From NCBI RefSeq assembly GCF_030384885.1, contig NZ_CP128613.1: a stretch of 64,000 nt of DNA. The stretch is one strand, 5' to 3'. Below are positions 13,767-29,965 of the stretch, one piece after another. The translations under genes were made by a program, and so were the position numbers. The stretch's first letter is position 1; each line of letters begins with the position of its first letter. The notes under the pieces are model-generated. The model was given only the letters and a program-made list of their open reading frames with translations, was not told the DNA's origin and did not search any database. The DNA is from Escherichia coli. Lineage in GTDB: Bacteria; Pseudomonadota; Gammaproteobacteria; Enterobacterales; Enterobacteriaceae.

Positions 13767-13820
13767 TGTCGGATCTTCCCTTACCCCATTGCGGGTAAGG
13801 GGCTAATAACAGGAACAACG

Positions 13821-21992: not shown

Positions 21993-22031
21993 TAGTGCAC
22001 TGGTAGCTGTTAAGCCAGGGGCGGTAGCGTG
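21993..22031 (+). promoter_or_regulatory. JUMPstart element with ops (RfaH-dependent antitermination) upstream of the O-antigen cluster
   Basis: agtgcactggtagctgttaagccaggggcggtagcgtg; ops core ggcggtag at 22020-22027. Confidence 0.85.
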
Positions 22032-22130: not shown

Positions 22131-23135
22131 ATGAAAGTAATTGTAAATAATTTTTTTGATGGTATTTTGAAAAGAGGAATACCGATCTATACTTCTGAAC
22201 TTGTGCAAAAGTTAAGAGACAATAATGTTCAGGTTATTTATGTTGCATGTCCAAAAGCATTCCATAAGCTGCCTTCATGGTTTCTGAATGTTCTTTTTAT
22301 AATAGTAGAGCAGCTTTTAATACCAATTATGGGTATATTTTATAGAACTAAGTATAATATATATCCCTATAATAGTAGTTCCATCATTGACTTGTTATTA
22401 GGTAAGGCAATTGTTATAATTCATGACTTCATTAGTCTTAAGAAAAATAAACGAAACCTTGCTGCCATTTATGTGAAAGTCTGTATTTATTTTTCATCTT
22501 TTTTAGCAAAGAAAGTAATATTTATTTCTCAAAGCACTCAGCGAGTATCTAAGAGAATATCGCTATTTAAGCGTATAGAATCTATCCTGCTCCCAAATCC
22601 ATTTTTCTCATTTGAGAAAATTGCTAATGTTACCGAAATAAAAGATCTTGGATATTTACTTCTAGTTTCAGGTTTAGGGGATAATAAGGATCTAGGCACA
22701 GCTCTGGACTATTATTTTTCAATCCCAAGGGAAGAAAGAATACCATTAAAAATATTAGGTTGTGGGAATGGTATTAGCAAGGTTAACGACTTAATTGATG
22801 GGCGGGATACAGATAAAGAAATTGAAATTATTGGTTTTGTTTCTTTAGAGGAAGTCGTCAAACTATATTGTAATTCTAAAATTGTTTGGGCTCATTCGCT
22901 TGCCGAGGGGTATGGCAGGACTTTAGCTGAAGCAAAACTCACATGCAAAAATGTTATATGCACACGGATCTCTGCTTTCCGCGAACAAAAGGATTCGAAT
23001 ATTTTCTTTTATACTTACTATTCTGAGTATTATGAAGTCTATTCATACTTGGTAGATAATTCACCCAGTGTCGAAAGGAAAGCTCTGCATGAACATATTT
23101 TATTTGAAAATGAATTGAGAAAGATTTATGAGTAA
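22131..23135 (+). CDS. O-antigen glycosyltransferase, GT4-like (likely mannosyltransferase), ~334 aa
   Basis: Low-GC ORF; C-terminal E-x7-E-type motif (AHSLAEGYGRTLAEAK); start set to MKVIVNN at 22131 with RBS aagag. Confidence 0.6.
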   Translation: MKVIVNNFFDGILKRGIPIYTSELVQKLRDNNVQVIYVACPKAFHKLPSWFLNVLFIIVEQLLIPIMGIFYRTKYNIYPYNSSSIIDLLLGKAIVIIHDFISLKKNKRNLAAIYVKVCIYFSSFLAKKVIFISQSTQRVSKRISLFKRIESILLPNPFFSFEKIANVTEIKDLGYLLLVSGLGDNKDLGTALDYYFSIPREERIPLKILGCGNGISKVNDLIDGRDTDKEIEIIGFVSLEEVVKLYCNSKIVWAHSLAEGYGRTLAEAKLTCKNVICTRISAFREQKDSNIFFYTYYSEYYEVYSYLVDNSPSVERKALHEHILFENELRKIYE

Positions 23136-24330
23136 TATTGATATAAATAAGAAACAGATATTAGTTTTGACTCCACGGTTCCCATTTCCTGTCATTGGTG
23201 GGGATCGATTACGTATCTATAAGATCTGTAAAGAACTGTCTAAGCATTATGATCTTACGTTGCTGAGTCTGTGTGATAAACGCGAAGAGCTCAACTATGA
23301 ATATGATCGTGAAGTTTTTAGTAGTGTTCACAGAGTATATCTTTCAAAGAAAAAATCTGTTTTAAATGTCATATTCTCTTTGTTTTCAAATACACCCCTA
23401 CAGATTGGGTATTATAAATCTAAAGAATTTGAAGATAAACTTAAGCAGTTATTACCTGAACATTCTGCAACTCTTTCACATTTGATAAGGGTTGGTGATT
23501 ATGTGAAAGAGAATAAAGATATAAATTTTTTAGAGATGACCGATGCCATTTCACTTAATTATAAACGAGTAAAGGAAAAAGCATCTTTATTGAGTTTAAA
23601 AACATTTGTATATTCTTTTGAACAAAAAAGACTCGAACGATATGAGCGAACTATAAATAACAAGTTCAGCTTGACTACTTTGGTATCACAGGTTGACTCC
23701 GATTATTTATATCCAGAGCGTCCGAATAATGTATTAGTTTGTGGAAATGGTGTTGATGCCGTTAGCTTACCTTTTTCAGAACGAAAAATAGCTAAAGATA
23801 AAAAGATAACCCTTGTATTTATAGGTAATTTATATTCTTTGCAAAATATGGATGGTGTGAGATGGTTCACCAAGGAAGTTTTACCATTTCTGAACAAGCA
23901 TGGTAATTTTGAATTTAAGGTCATCGGACGTATTACAGATAAAGATAAGAGTTGGTTAGAAAGCCAGCCTGGCGTTGTTGTCACAGGTGAAGTTGATAGC
24001 ATAACTTATGCAGCAGCTGATGGGCATATTGGTGTGTGTCCTATTAGATTAGGGGCAGGTATCCAAAATAAGGTACTTGAATATATGGCGTTGGGATTAC
24101 CTTGTATATCTTCTACTGTAGGCTTTGAAGGCTTGGGAGCAGAGGAGGGTAAGGAGATTTATGTTGCCAATACAAAAGAAGAATATTTACGTGTATTAAA
24201 TTATTTTATAACAAATCTGGATAAATATACCGAAACAGCATTAGTTGCGAAAAAGTTTATCGATGAGAATTTTTCATGGGAAGCTAAATTGAGCCCATAT
24301 ATCCAGAAAATTAAGGAGTCTGTTAAATAA
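23128..24330 (+). CDS. O-antigen glycosyltransferase, GT4 family, 400 aa
   Basis: GT4 signature region [43 protein letters not shown]; 8-nt overlap with upstream GT. Confidence 0.7.
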
Positions 24331-24331
24331 A

Positions 24332-25747
24332 ATGATTATCCCAATTATTATGGCCGGTGGTTCTGGGACTCGCTTATGGCCTCTTTCGCGTTCGTTATAC
24401 CCGAAACAATTTTTATCATTGACTAATGAAAATAGTTTGCTCCAGGAAACGTTGAAGCGACTTGATGGATTAAATTGTTTGCCTCCTGTCATTGTTAGCA
24501 ATAATGAGCATAGATTTATTGTTGCTGAACAATTGCGACAGTTCGGTGTGGATGACTTCCAGATTATTCTAGAACCTGTAGGTAGAAATACTGCGCCCGC
24601 CGTTGCGCTGGCTGCTCTAAAGGCTCTGGAACTCCATGGCGATCATCATATGCTGGTTCTTGCTGCTGACCATGCTATTCAGGATATTGAAGCCTTCCAT
24701 GCAGCTGTTTTAGCTGCAGAACAAGAGTCCGTTGACAATAAGTTAGTGACTTTTGGCATCGTCCCGACCAAACCTGAAACTGGGTATGGCTATATTAAAA
24801 AGGGCGAACAAGTTAAAAACTCCGTATTTAAAGTAAATTCTTTCGTCGAAAAACCTGATTTAGAAACGGCTAAAAATTATCTCGAACAAAAATGCTATTT
24901 GTGGAATAGTGGTATGTTCATGTTCAAGGCGAGCGTATATTTAGATGAATTGAAAAAATTTCGCCCTGATATTTTAGCAGCGTGTAAAGAGTCGCTTTCC
25001 AGTGCTAGTACTGATCTAGATTTTATCAGATTAAATTCTGATGTCTTTGCAGAATGTCCCGATGAGTCAATTGATTATGCGGTAATGGAAAAAACTCAGG
25101 ATTGTGTAGTTATTCCACTTGATGCTGACTGGAGTGACATCGGATCATGGACATCACTTTGGGAAATATCAGAGAAAGATGAACATGAAAACGTATCGCA
25201 TGGTGATGTAATTAACTATAACAGCAGGAACAACTACATTTACTCTGAAGGTTCACTGATCAGCACTGTTGGAGTTAATAACCTTATTATAGTTCAAACT
25301 AAAGATGCGCTCCTGGTAGCACAGCAAGACAACGTACAAGACATAAAGAAAATTGTCGAAATTCTTAAAAAACAAAAACGTAGCGAACATATATCCCATC
25401 GCGAAGTCTATCGTCCTTGGGGACGTTATGATTCTGTAGAACGTGGCGACCGTTATCAGGTAAAACGTATTACCGTTAAGCCTGGTGAATGTCTCTCAAC
25501 ACAAATGCATCATCATCGAGCTGAGCATTGGGTGGTTGTCGCTGGTACTGCAAAGGTGACTTGCGGCGAACGCACTTATTTCGTCACTGAAAATGAGTCA
25601 ACTTTCATACCAATTGGCACAGTTCATACCTTGGAAAATCCAGGAAAGATACCATTAGAAGTAATTGAGATTCAGTCGGGTGTATATCTAGGTGATGATG
25701 ATATTGTGCGCCTAAGTGATAAATATGGTCGTGTTGAGGATAAATAA
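24332..25747 (+). CDS. manC: Mannose-1-phosphate guanylyltransferase (O-antigen copy), 471 aa
   Basis: [16 protein letters not shown] motif and cupin C-terminus; paralog of cpsB in this window but low GC. Confidence 0.9.
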
Positions 25748-25751
25748 TTAT

Positions 25752-27173
25752 ATGAATATTACCAATGATGTAATTAAAAATAGCGGAATTGCATTTGGTA
25801 CAAGTGGTGCTCGTGGATTAGTGAAAGATTTTACACCCAACGTGTGTGCTGCATTCACTTATGCTTTTATCGATGTAATGATGAAGGATTTTTCTTTTAA
25901 AGAGGTTGCGCTCGCAATAGATAATCGCCCAAGCAGCTATGCTATGGCACAAGCTTGCGCAGCAGCATTGTTGGAATGTAGTATTAAACCTATTTACTAC
26001 GGTGTAATTCCAACTCCAGCTTTGGCAAATCAAGCGATTGCCGATGGGATTCCTGCAATAATGGTTACTGGAAGTCATATTCCATTTGATAGAAATGGTT
26101 TGAAATTCTATCGTCCAGACGGGGAAATTTCAAAAGAAAATGAGAACAGCATTATACATGCTGAAAAAGAATATCCTGATGTAACTGTATTGCCAGAATT
26201 ACAATGTTCAAAGCGTGCCGCTGATACTTATATCGAGAGAAACACTTCAATTTTTTCAAATATATTTAAAGGTAAACGTATCGGGATTTATGAACATTCA
26301 AGTGCGGGACGGGATCTTTATCCAGAAATATTCAGTAAGCTTGGTGCTGAAGTTGTAAGTATTGGTAGAAGTGATGAGTTTGTGCCTATTGATACTGAAG
26401 CAGTATCAAAAGAAGATGAAGAAAAAGCTTTACACTGGTCATCTGAGTATGACCTCGATATGATTTTTTCTACCGATGGTGATGGCGATCGTCCTTTGGT
26501 TGCTGACGAAAATGGCGTTTGGTTACGGGGTGATATATTAGGACTATTTTGCTCAAAGGCAATGAATATTGAAGCGGTAGCTGTACCTGTAAGTTGTAAT
26601 ACGGTTATTCAGACCTGCGGGTGGTTTAATCATGTAACGCTGACTAAAATTGGTTCACCATACGTCATTTCAGCGTTTGATTCTCTGAATAATAGTTTTG
26701 ATAGTGTTGCAGGGTTTGAGGCTAACGGTGGGTATCTTTTAGGTAGCGATGTAAATTATAACAGCGGTATGATTAAAGCGCTTCCAACAAGAGATGCTGT
26801 TTTGCCTGCTTTAATGGTACTGGCACTGGCTATAAAAAATAATGTGACTATTTCAAAACTTTTGGCGGAGTTGCCACCACGATTTACCTATTCAAATAGA
26901 GTTCAAAATTTTGCAACAAGCAAAAGCAAAAGCATTATCGCGTCAGCTCAAGAAAATCCTCAAGAATTTATCGAAAGAATAGGCTTTGTCGACCTTCATG
27001 TACAATCGGTGGATACAATTGACGGGTTAAGATTGACACTAAGTGATGGTTCAATAATCCATTTGCGACCGTCAGGCAACGCACCTGAATTGCGATGCTA
27101 TGCAGAAGCAGATAACATAATAAAAGCTGAGAAATTAGTGTTAGAAATTTTGCATAAAGTTACTCTTTTGTAA
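25752..27173 (+). CDS. manB: Phosphomannomutase-like alpha-D-phosphohexomutase (O-antigen copy), ~473 aa, divergent from cpsG
   Basis: Phosphohexomutase loops present but atypical: TGSHIP (phosphoserine loop), DGDGDR (metal), GFEANGG (sugar), RPSGNAPE (phosphate); start set to MNITNDV at 25752. Confidence 0.75.
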
Positions 27174-27356
27174 AAAAATATAAACTTTTTTCTACTCTTG
27201 AGCGGTTTGTCATTGAACCGCTCAGTAATAGATTATTTTTAACTTGTTTATATTTAGCATTGGTGTTTTTATTTGCGTTCATCCCGAATAAGAGATTGTA
27301 AAATTAACTGTTTCTTGTTTTTCAAATGAGTTACTTCACTAGCAAAGCTAATTACT

Positions 27357-28688
27357 ATGCATAAGCAATATTATTCATTATTGTGCAATAAAATACAGTT
27401 TAAACATCTGGCTATATATTTTTCTGTATTTCTTTCACTATCCTCATGTTTCTTGTGGGGAGGGGCGGATACATTTGTATCGCAAGTGTATATTGATATT
27501 TTAGCCACTATATCTACAGCTCTATTAGTTATTTTGATGTTCTATTATTATATTAATAGAGTTCGCTATTTATCACTAACCTTACTTTTTGCATTCGTTT
27601 TTTCTTTGATTATTGGTTTGCCATCGATTTATCTTTACTATTTTAAAAACGCAAATCATGGGTTTGAAATAATTTGTATCTGGGGGATGTTGATCAATTC
27701 CATCCTTTACTTGCAAACAACAGAGACTGTCATAAAAGAAGAAAAAAGATATTTAACTAGTTTATTTTATATTTTGTTTTCTATTGTTGCACTGTGTCAA
27801 TTATGCAAAATATTAATTTATCTTATGTTTATATTGAATTCAGGAGAAGGGCATTTAGCAATTTATACTGAAAGCGAAGAATTGCTATCCCAAGTTCCAT
27901 TTTTTATTCGTGCTATTAGTGGTTTTGCAGTTGTAATGTCATTGTCCACTTTTTATTTTAAAACACCGACCTACATTAAAGTTATTGCATTTATTTTACT
28001 TGCATCTGATTTAGCTATTGGAATACGTAATAAGTTTTTCTTTTCAGTGATTTGTATTTTTATACTATATATGTACTCTAATGAGTATAGAGTAAGGAAT
28101 TTATTTAAGCAGCTCTCAAAACCAATATTTCTCATCGCGGGTTTTTTATGCTTCTCGATGGTATCGTATTTCCGTGAAGGGTACCAAATCGATTTTATGA
28201 ATTATATTGGCATTGTTTTAGATTCGCTATCCTCTACTCTTGGGGGGATGCAGAATTTGTTTGATATGCAATCATCAGGATGGGATCAACTTCATCCCGC
28301 TGTGGTATTCACACAAGTATTACCGCTAAGCGGTCTTGGTTTTCTTGATGATCAACAAATCGCAAAAGATTTTTCAATAATTGTTTTAGGTGATGTATCC
28401 TCTGGTATTGCGTTGTCATCTTCAGGATTGTTAGAGTCATCGTTGCTGAGTCTAAATTTGGGAGTGATTATTTATTTACTGTATTTATCAGGGGTGATGC
28501 TATTTATTAAATGGGGACTAAATAATCAACGGATAATAATAAACTTTGTTGCCATCTCCATGATATCTGGATTTTTTTATGCTGTTCGTGGTGAACTGAT
28601 TTTGCCATTGGCTTTTCTTCTAAAATCATTGCCGATTGTTCTTATATCTCCATTACTTGTTAAAAATAAAATTTATCATGGTCAGTAA
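27357..28688 (+). CDS. wzy: Putative O-antigen polymerase Wzy (polytopic membrane protein), 443 aa
   Basis: Very hydrophobic, low-GC, poor RBS, lies next to wzx in the O-antigen cluster; assignment by elimination. Confidence 0.55.
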   Translation: MHKQYYSLLCNKIQFKHLAIYFSVFLSLSSCFLWGGADTFVSQVYIDILATISTALLVILMFYYYINRVRYLSLTLLFAFVFSLIIGLPSIYLYYFKNANHGFEIICIWGMLINSILYLQTTETVIKEEKRYLTSLFYILFSIVALCQLCKILIYLMFILNSGEGHLAIYTESEELLSQVPFFIRAISGFAVVMSLSTFYFKTPTYIKVIAFILLASDLAIGIRNKFFFSVICIFILYMYSNEYRVRNLFKQLSKPIFLIAGFLCFSMVSYFREGYQIDFMNYIGIVLDSLSSTLGGMQNLFDMQSSGWDQLHPAVVFTQVLPLSGLGFLDDQQIAKDFSIIVLGDVSSGIALSSSGLLESSLLSLNLGVIIYLLYLSGVMLFIKWGLNNQRIIINFVAISMISGFFYAVRGELILPLAFLLKSLPIVLISPLLVKNKIYHGQ

Positions 28689-28729
28689 GTGGTTTATTTT
28701 TCGACCAGGATCTCACCAGTAGGCATGAC

Positions 28730-29965
28730 ATGATCAAAGAAATTTTCTCCGATGGCATTTTTTCGCTATTTAATAAAATATGTTACTTCGGTTTTAAAAC
28801 ACTTGCAATAATTCTGATTACTCGTTCCTTAGGAGAAGATGTAGGCGGAGAGTTCATTTTTTTAGTTGGTTTTCTCGAAGTCCTTCGGGTGGTTACTGAT
28901 TTTGGTGTGGATCTGTTTGTTATAAAAAAATATAATGATTCTACAGATAAAATAAAACTATTAAATGTAACGTTTGCACAAAAAATTCTTTCTGGAGTAA
29001 TTGTTTCACTACTGTTTTGTTTGTATTCTTTTGTTCATGGTTATCAATATAATGTCTATATTCCTATTGTGTTAGCCTTACCTGTTGCTTTATTTTTTAA
29101 TTTCTCAAATAGCTATTTTCAATCTCTCAATTCCAATAAATCCCTCACGTTTCCGATCGCAATTGCATCTATTGCAACGTGTACGATCTTCGCTATTCAG
29201 TATTTTTTAAACGTTAAATTTAACGCATGGGATTACCTGTGTGTTGAACTATTATTCGTATCGCTGGTTACACTAAAACTATTCGTTAGTGTCAAGTTTA
29301 GGTTTATTAGAACGTCAGCTTTTGATGTGCTAATGTCAATTCTTTCTTTATATAAATATACATTAAGTATAGGTCTTACAGCTGTTGTTGTAATTATTTA
29401 TAGCCGTGTAGATAATTTTTATCTCAAGACATTTGCCCCAGGGGATCTTGCAGCATATGGCCAGATATTTAGGATGGTTGATCCACTGGTTATGGTTTCT
29501 TCTGTATTTTCTACAGTTGCCTATGCAAGATTTTGCCGAATTAACTTACAAGAAAAAAATGCTTTTACTAAGGTGTTTCAGTTCCTGTTATGTATTGTGG
29601 CATATGGCGTGCTGAGTTCATTAGTTTATTTCTTTATAATAAAATACCTGGGTCATTTTGTGTTGATTTCTAATGTTAATAATGATTTCTTGATAATGAT
29701 GTTCTTGATTGTTGCATGTGTGAAATGTATCAATGGTGGTACAACTGCAATAATTCAGTCACAGGGGTTTTATAAAGTGGGTTTGTATGTTTCGTATGTT
29801 TGCATTTTGACATCGATACCAACTATGTATTTCTTAATAATGAAGTACGGTGTTAAAGGTGCTGCTATGACGATTCTGCTTGTAGAGTGTATTAGTTTCA
29901 TATTACTTCTCTGCAGCTTTTTTATGATAAAAAAGATGCGTCCTAAAAAAACATTCGAAATGTAA
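28730..29965 (+). CDS. wzx: Putative O-antigen flippase Wzx, 411 aa
   Basis: N-terminal region LAIILITRSLGEDVGGEFIFLVG...DFGVDLFVIKK parallels the wzxC N-terminus (LARIIDNHQFGLLTV...DFGIANSIIQRK); about 12 hydrophobic segments. Confidence 0.65.
   Translation: MIKEIFSDGIFSLFNKICYFGFKTLAIILITRSLGEDVGGEFIFLVGFLEVLRVVTDFGVDLFVIKKYNDSTDKIKLLNVTFAQKILSGVIVSLLFCLYSFVHGYQYNVYIPIVLALPVALFFNFSNSYFQSLNSNKSLTFPIAIASIATCTIFAIQYFLNVKFNAWDYLCVELLFVSLVTLKLFVSVKFRFIRTSAFDVLMSILSLYKYTLSIGLTAVVVIIYSRVDNFYLKTFAPGDLAAYGQIFRMVDPLVMVSSVFSTVAYARFCRINLQEKNAFTKVFQFLLCIVAYGVLSSLVYFFIIKYLGHFVLISNVNNDFLIMMFLIVACVKCINGGTTAIIQSQGFYKVGLYVSYVCILTSIPTMYFLIMKYGVKGAAMTILLVECISFILLLCSFFMIKKMRPKKTFEM

Follow-up and report, generated by a model that had tools for sequence, protein, structure and literature searches.

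The window, that is, the whole 64,000-nucleotide stretch of Escherichia coli DNA that was analysed, contains an O-antigen gene cluster, and the region is 100% identical to the record of E. coli 2013C-4282 (NZ_CP027579.1). In the RefSeq annotation of this identical record, the genes are ordered galF, two glycosyltransferase genes, manC, manB, wzy, wzx, gnd, ugd, wzzB and the his operon. The annotation of wzy and wzx assigns the cluster to the O17/O44/O73/O77/O106 family, serogroups that have one common gene cluster for a Man-Man-Man-GlcNAc backbone (PMC7685785). The five reference serogroup clusters are described as more than 99% identical to each other, unlike the window allele when it is set against other carriers. 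None of the 5426 complete E. coli genomes besides that of the window strain has the same cluster allele (22131-29965); over a 751-bp junction query, identity to it is 95-99% in the other 92 carriers (approximately 98.5% in the records listed).

The leader of the operon contains a JUMPstart element with an ops site, 5.2 kb upstream of the manB-wzy hairpin that is the subject of this analysis. The presence of JUMPstart and ops in the leader indicates that the O-antigen operon is of the RfaH type. The main features of the locus are as follows.

21993..22031, plus strand: JUMPstart element that includes the ops site; lies in the leader, after galF and ahead of the first transferase gene (Rfam RF01707, 59.2 bits, E 1e-11)
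22020-22031, plus strand: ops site GGCGGTAGCGTG, the RfaH loading site (read from the sequence)
25752..27173, plus strand: manB, phosphomannomutase of 473 amino acids, 'long' non-CpsG type (RefSeq annotation; PGM_PMM-type NCBIfam matches, weak CpsG match)
27174..27356, plus strand: non-coding spacer, 183 bp, 28% GC, single-copy (ORF list, annotation, blastn)
27357..28688, plus strand: wzy, O-antigen polymerase of the O17/O44/O73/O77/O106 family (annotation, homology)
28730..29965, plus strand: wzx, O-antigen flippase of the O17/O44/O73/O77/O106 family (RefSeq annotation)

The spacer and stem-loop between manB and wzy

The manB gene is the final gene of the glycosyltransferase/GDP-mannose block. 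The first-pass annotation described a 183-bp gap between manB and wzy, and both limits were confirmed: the manB stop codon (TAA) occupies 27171-27173 and the wzy ATG begins at 27357. An extended wzy reading frame, named there as a possible refutation, was rejected, as the frame is closed by an in-frame stop at 27327-27329, 30 nt upstream, and contains no later start codon before 27357. The statement that all other junctions of the cluster overlap or are separated by a few bases holds for the two glycosyltransferase genes (-8 bp), for the second of these and manC (1 bp) and for manC and manB (4 bp), but not for wzy and wzx, which are 41 bp apart.

The sole open reading frame within the gap is a low-complexity antisense frame of 40 amino acids (27160-27282), judged spurious, and no insertion sequence (IS) or gene remnant was found there by similarity search of E. 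coli genomes or by ORF search. Rfam 15 covariance models gave no match in 27174-27356 at E values up to 1. Between 20000 and 35000, the only Rfam matches were JUMPstart and a chance, sub-threshold match inside wzy to the archaeal snoRNA sR14 (28399-28447, minus strand; 22 bits against a gathering threshold of 38, E 0.025).

By blastn (word size 11, E up to 1), the spacer was found in 93 of 5426 complete E. coli genomes, at one place per genome and always between manB and wzy. A REP/BIME element, a MITE, an IS end or any other dispersed palindromic repeat was rejected as an identity for the spacer, which is single-copy. The window allele differs from the common E. coli allele at 6 of 183 positions; the hairpin arms carry none of these differences, the loop carries one and the T-rich stretch downstream of the hairpin three. 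Between E. coli alleles, 3.3% of spacer sites and 1-3% of 4-fold sites differ, and constraint is thus not visible at this short range.

The stem-loop itself starts 25 nt after the manB stop codon.

27198..27225, plus strand: stem-loop UUGAGCGGUUUG-UCAU-UGAACCGCUCAG (RNAfold; perfect 9-bp core at 27199-27224)

RNAfold predicts 12 pairs, G·U pairs included, over 27198-27225, at about -15.7 kcal/mol. The arms reported earlier, gagcggtt at 27200-27207 and aaccgctc at 27216-27223, were recovered exactly; the perfect 8-bp inverted repeat is present where it had been placed, although the perfect stem is in fact 9 bp long (27199-27224). In dinucleotide shuffles of the gap, a perfect inverted repeat of at least 8 bp with a loop of 3-10 nt occurs in 6% and one of at least 9 bp in 1.6%, while a G+C-rich perfect 8-bp repeat (at least 5 G:C pairs) occurs in 0.02%. 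The best 44-nt local fold has a free energy of -18.5 kcal/mol, whereas the shuffles average -8.4 +/- 2.2 (z -4.6) and 0 of 100 are as stable. Of the 42 tiles of the low-GC O-antigen cluster, the one with the hairpin also has the strongest local fold. Its absolute energy is ordinary relative to the GC-richer rest of the window, where 55 of 349 tiles are as stable, and the whole window holds 27 perfect 8-bp-type hairpins. The manB-wzy hairpin is non-random.

An outer perfect 10-bp A/T inverted repeat, AAATATAAAC at 27176-27185 and GTTTATATTT at 27246-27255, brackets the hairpin and appears in the minimum free energy fold of the gap. This outer repeat is not kept in the related locus L006 (see below) and is probably due to chance.

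Related loci and selection on the stem-loop

Relatives were found by a Wzy protein search (88% down to 32% identity), and their genomic contexts were retrieved. Twelve related loci, representing about eight lineages, were compared. Type A (the window, L002, L006, L007 and L014) has a manB product of 473-475 amino acids, and type B (L008, L009, L010, L011, L012, L016 and L017) has a CpsG-type manB product of 456 amino acids. The loci include those of Escherichia, Salmonella Cerro, Citrobacter freundii, Enterobacter bugandensis, Ewingella and Xenorhabdus. All have the layout of two glycosyltransferase genes, manC, manB, a gap, wzy and wzx, with wzy identity from 99% down to 48%. The manB-wzy gap measures 112-213 bp in all 12, and its strongest local fold is in every case a stem-loop that begins 3-25 nt after the manB stop codon. 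These stem-loops have free energies of -13 to -19 kcal/mol and z values of -2.5 to -6.7 relative to dinucleotide shuffles; type B sequences could not be aligned into a single alignment or consensus structure, and each locus was folded and compared with its own shuffles. The first-pass annotation had posed conservation of the spacer as a unit with its flanking genes in many serogroups as a ground for refutation. Such conservation was indeed found; it speaks for a function and leaves the finding intact.

As a control, other gaps of at least 40 bp within these clusters (manC>manB, wzy>wzx, wzx>gnd, wzx>acyltransferase and others) were put through the same procedure, and z exceeded -2 in 17 of these 18 gaps. 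Scores similar to those of manB>wzy were obtained for gnd>ugd, where a terminator-like hairpin lies. The positive control, the wzc>wcaA gap in the colanic acid cluster of the same window, also scored (-19.4 kcal/mol, z -2.8). The strong fold at manB>wzy, not seen at other internal gaps, suggests that the stem-loop is specific to that junction. A wzy profile search of genome contigs added a single distant Serratia locus (L013), in which wzy abuts the preceding open reading frame.

Two other observations concern the loci L018 and L007. In a Yersinia pseudotuberculosis locus (L018, 4924-6000), a wzy homologue follows a 1077-bp gap without a called gene. This gap begins with tandem 7-nt repeats (TATCGTA) and contains no strong hairpin relative to shuffles, and the manB>wzz junction of the same locus is also without a hairpin. 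In the cluster with 70% Wzy identity (L007, 8625-8894), an 89-amino-acid HTH_29 open reading frame, which may be an IS remnant, lies between wzx and gnd.

L002, L006 and L007 keep the stem-loop, with changes that are compensatory or give G·U pairs. Between the window and L006 (88% Wzy identity), the spacer is 79% identical, compared with 65-69% at 4-fold sites. Between the window and L007 (70% Wzy identity), 4-fold sites have reached saturation (32-35% identity), and only the hairpin part of the spacer can still be aligned. Here, double changes convert a G-C pair to A-U and a U-A pair to G-U, single changes convert two G-C pairs to G-U, the outermost pair alternates between U-G and U-A, and all 10 outer pairs remain intact. 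These pairing-preserving changes, at a distance at which 4-fold sites are saturated, suggest that the pairing of the hairpin is under apparent selection; the covariation support comes from four alignable sequences. Elsewhere, L009 and L016 share common flanks and have largely rewritten stems with pairing intact in both, and L014 (60% Wzy identity) has an unrelated textbook terminator, AAAAAGGTAATAAC...GTTATTGCCTTTTTAT, at the same offset. Non-homologous hairpins of this kind could arise by repeated swapping-in of manB-plus-hairpin cassettes.

The two strands were compared by the best fold per gap, without hairpin limits chosen beforehand from the sense fold. The sense fold is more stable than the antisense fold in 9 of 12 gaps, by a mean of approximately 3 kcal/mol. 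The sense strand is favoured because G·U pairs become A·C on the other strand. Taken by itself, the window allele does not tell the strands apart, its sense and antisense folds being equally stable.

Possible roles and origin of the stem-loop

The window hairpin has the stable G+C-rich stem-loop of an intrinsic terminator. Of the 8 nt that follow the stem (tail TAATAGAT), 3 are T, and a terminator scan that requires five or more T within an 8-nt stretch beginning 0-2 nt past the stem did not list the manB-wzy hairpin of the window. A T5 run lies 13 nt downstream of the stem and is not conserved in the majority E. coli allele. A canonical intrinsic terminator was rejected for the window allele, as it fails on the U-tract. 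U-rich tails directly 3' of a G+C-rich stem are present in 5 of 8 lineages (L014, L011, L009, L016 and, in part, L008), and the lineage of E. coli, L006 and L007 is without one. The earlier proposal of an internal terminator or attenuator is supported by the comparison, in that a strong stem-loop follows manB in 12 of 12 loci and is not a property of the other gaps; the missing U-tract of the window allele weakens it. A role of the window hairpin as an internal terminator or attenuator is plausible on these sequence features.

On balance, comparison of the loci leans towards an intercistronic attenuator or mRNA-stabilising stem-loop in an operon controlled by RfaH and ops. RNA polymerase starting upstream of JUMPstart/ops, with RfaH loaded at ops, would transcribe through manB, and the nascent sense-strand hairpin would form in the untranslated gap approximately 25 nt after manB. 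In relatives with a U-rich tail, the hairpin may act as a partial intrinsic terminator that ends a fraction of transcripts. The window allele, without an adjacent U-tract, would be at most a weak terminator or a hairpin-dependent pause, and may serve mainly as a barrier to 3'-exonucleases that stabilises the upstream mRNA segment. In vitro, hairpin-dependent pausing is suppressed by RfaH, which also aids anti-termination at both intrinsic and Rho-dependent terminators (PMC2871177); the RfaH-modified polymerase would be expected to read through the hairpin. The predicted net effect is that wzy and wzx are expressed less than the precursor and transferase genes, in an RfaH-dependent manner. The hairpin would separate the expression of the genes for cytoplasmic enzymes (two glycosyltransferases, manC and manB) from that of the membrane-protein genes wzy and wzx. 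The same junction is also a historical recombination boundary of exchangeable modules.

The history of the junction bears on the main alternative, in which a wzy-wzx module was joined to a glycosyltransferase-manCB module and the hairpin is an inert scar, the old terminator of a unit that ended in manB, with no present role. Between types A and B, Wzy is 48-56% and Wzx 49-50% identical in amino acid sequence, while ManB is 21-24% and the glycosyltransferases are 25-35% identical, the latter with swapped order. As judged from these identities, the manB-wzy gap is a boundary between blocks of unlike history, which bears out the module boundary proposed earlier. These differing flank histories favour the scar, as do a mild GC step across the gap (about 0.39 to 0.30) and the position of long-type manB, which in other E. 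coli O-antigen clusters usually comes last, ahead of gnd. Further, non-coding regions of O-antigen clusters have been reviewed as anomalies that mark relatively recent events (PMC7685785). However, an unselected hairpin would be expected to decay, whereas 12 of 12 loci keep one, with pairing preserved where 4-fold sites are saturated, and the gap contains no IS or gene remnant. The inert remnant of a recombination junction, as put forward in the first-pass annotation, is not favoured, given that gap and hairpin persist across genera with pairing-preserving changes, and is regarded as possible but unlikely.

Clusters in which manB is terminal also speak against a carried-over terminator, which predicts the opposite of what they contain. 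The hairpin after terminal long-type manB is weak in the family of L020, L021 and L025-L028 (about -10 kcal/mol, z about 0) and absent in L022. Where manB is followed by a further gene, the hairpin is strong, as before wzx of O126 (L023), before acyltransferase genes (L019 and plasmid L024) and between cpsG and wcaJ in the window. In this small sample, a hairpin that is weak or absent at terminal manB and strong at internal manB points away from an inert leftover. A general selected rule for Wzy-dependent clusters can be formulated, in which a stem-loop would act as a 'step-down valve' wherever the last cytoplasmic precursor gene precedes membrane genes (wzy, wzx, wcaJ or acyltransferase genes) and would be weak or absent at a cluster-ending manB; such a rule is at present speculative and rather doubtful.

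Two of these junctions have features of their own. In the window, the 54-bp gap between the colanic acid manB gene (cpsG) and wcaJ contains, at 13778-13801, a G+C-rich hairpin with a perfect 9-bp stem, CCCTTACCC-CATTGC-GGGTAAGGG, that has no U-tract (-17.1 kcal/mol, z -4.0). The locus L024 is a 52-kb E. coli plasmid, p21AR0133D, with an O-antigen-like fragment (glycosyltransferase gene, manC, manB and acyltransferase gene) that has a strong hairpin after manB and adjoins ISKpn13 and ISAs1 transposase genes.

Another alternative concerns the part of the gap downstream of the hairpin, which has the following features.

27226..27356, plus strand: AT-rich wzy leader, 131 nt, without a recognisable Shine-Dalgarno sequence (sequence, promoter and motif scans)
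27326..27364, plus strand: 12-codon upstream open reading frame (uORF), MSYFTSKANYYA and a stop codon, overlapping the wzy ATG, which lacks a Shine-Dalgarno sequence, by 8 nt (kept in L002 and L006)

This alternative takes the gap to serve mainly as promoter and 5' leader for an independently expressed wzy-wzx unit; the hairpin would end the upstream transcript, and a promoter, a uORF-coupled start or both would lie in the leader. In line with it, at least 76 nt separate the hairpin from wzy at every locus, and the spacer identity between the window and L006 is higher than that at 4-fold sites. TATAAT-like boxes occur in some relatives (L011 and L010), yet promoter-like sites, with 49 found against 41 +/- 6.6 in shuffles, are not above chance, the promoter matches within the gap are of the 9-of-12 grade only and overlap the hairpin loop, and comparison across loci found no motif common to the leaders. 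Short uORFs over the wzy ATG are present in 3 of 8 lineages, those outside the window lineage ending in an ATGA overlap (MLREI and a stop codon in L009/L016, MLGSIKFL and a stop codon in L010/L017). Against this, no uORF was found in L007 (ATG), L014, L011 or L012, that is, in 4 of 8 lineages (L008, in which the wzy start is mis-set, was not counted), the amino acid changes of the uORF are non-synonymous, and in the Serratia homologue wzy directly abuts the preceding frame. The uORF may be a coupling device or may be due to chance, and an independent wzy-wzx unit is considered improbable.

That the hairpin is a chance palindrome of an AT-rich spacer, without meaning, is highly improbable and effectively refuted by the comparative data: some perfect 8-bp repeat does arise in 6% of shuffles and 27 such hairpins are spread across the window, but a GC-rich stem is found in only 0.02% of shuffles and all 12 loci have a hairpin in this position.

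Comparison with known intra-operon hairpins

The manB-wzy hairpin, read as an attenuator or mRNA-stabilising stem-loop, is most likely a known kind of element and not a new kind. The features expected of the attenuator type are present, namely ops/JUMPstart in the 5' leader and a co-directional stem-loop between blocks that is kept in all 12 loci. No description of a manB-wzy hairpin was found in the literature searched, the coverage of which was incomplete.

A stem-loop transcriptional attenuator is located after wzc, between wzc and wbaP, in the E. coli group 1 and Klebsiella cps clusters, and likewise after wzc in the colanic acid operon (PMC3438125, PMC2516531). The manB-wzy hairpin is similar in being an intergenic stem-loop of a JUMPstart/ops (RfaH) polysaccharide operon at the border of functional blocks. 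For the wzc attenuator, reduced transcription of the distal block is predicted (PMC3438125, PMC2516531), and by analogy the same effect is proposed for manB-wzy. In contrast to the wzc attenuator, the manB-wzy junction lies in an O-antigen cluster, its sequence is unrelated and the window allele is without a U-tract. The blocks also differ, as the wzc junction divides export genes from serotype-specific genes, whereas the manB-wzy junction divides cytoplasmic enzymes from polymerase and flippase.

An intra-operon terminator between hlyA and hlyB of hlyCABD, overcome by RfaH, is cited in PMC2871177. By analogy, the manB-wzy hairpin would resemble it as an internal hairpin of an ops-bearing operon ahead of membrane-protein genes. 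According to work by Koronakis in 1988 and by Leeds and Welch in 1996, the hlyA-hlyB hairpin terminator reportedly keeps expression of the distal membrane-protein genes low as long as RfaH is not loaded. It differs from the manB-wzy hairpin in being a demonstrated Rho-independent terminator; the latter is at most a putative one and misses a U-tract in the window allele.

Intercistronic hairpins that stabilise mRNA include the REP sequences between malE and malF and the stem-loops of the puf operon. Such hairpins give differential stability of mRNA segments, and hence protein stoichiometry, within one operon. Like these, the manB-wzy hairpin is a stable hairpin at the 3' end of the upstream cistron without a U-tract; unlike REP elements, which are multi-copy, it is single-copy.

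The gap is also comparable with the non-coding anomalies described in O-antigen clusters (PMC7685785), as an unusually long non-coding stretch where the histories of blocks differ. Those anomalies are interpreted as signs of relatively recent events, whereas the manB-wzy gap is old and shared across genera, with a structure under apparent selection. Thus, a non-coding 'anomaly' in an O-antigen cluster can be old and constrained and is not necessarily a recent scar.

If the attenuator or mRNA-stabilising reading is correct, the hairpin would set how much of the sugar-precursor and transferase enzymes is made relative to O-antigen polymerase and flippase. Expression of wzy and wzx would then be tied to RfaH in a family that includes pathogenic E. 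coli of serogroups O17/O44/O73/O77/O106, such as EAEC 042 and the O77g lineage, to which HUS cases in 2025 have been linked. Should the step-down rule also hold, the dosage of polymerase and flippase would depend specifically on RfaH read-through. Overall, the finding is a modest, incremental addition to the biology of RfaH and attenuators and introduces no new principle.

The colanic acid cluster of the same window offers a related observation. Its wzc>wcaA gap (1733-1860) holds, at 1744-1775, a REP-like imperfect palindrome, GTCGGATGCGATGCTGACGCATCTTATCCGAC, which is the fold scored above as the positive control (-19.4 kcal/mol, z -2.8). The stem-loop attenuator of the colanic acid operon has been placed in the gap after wzc (PMC2516531), the position of this palindrome.
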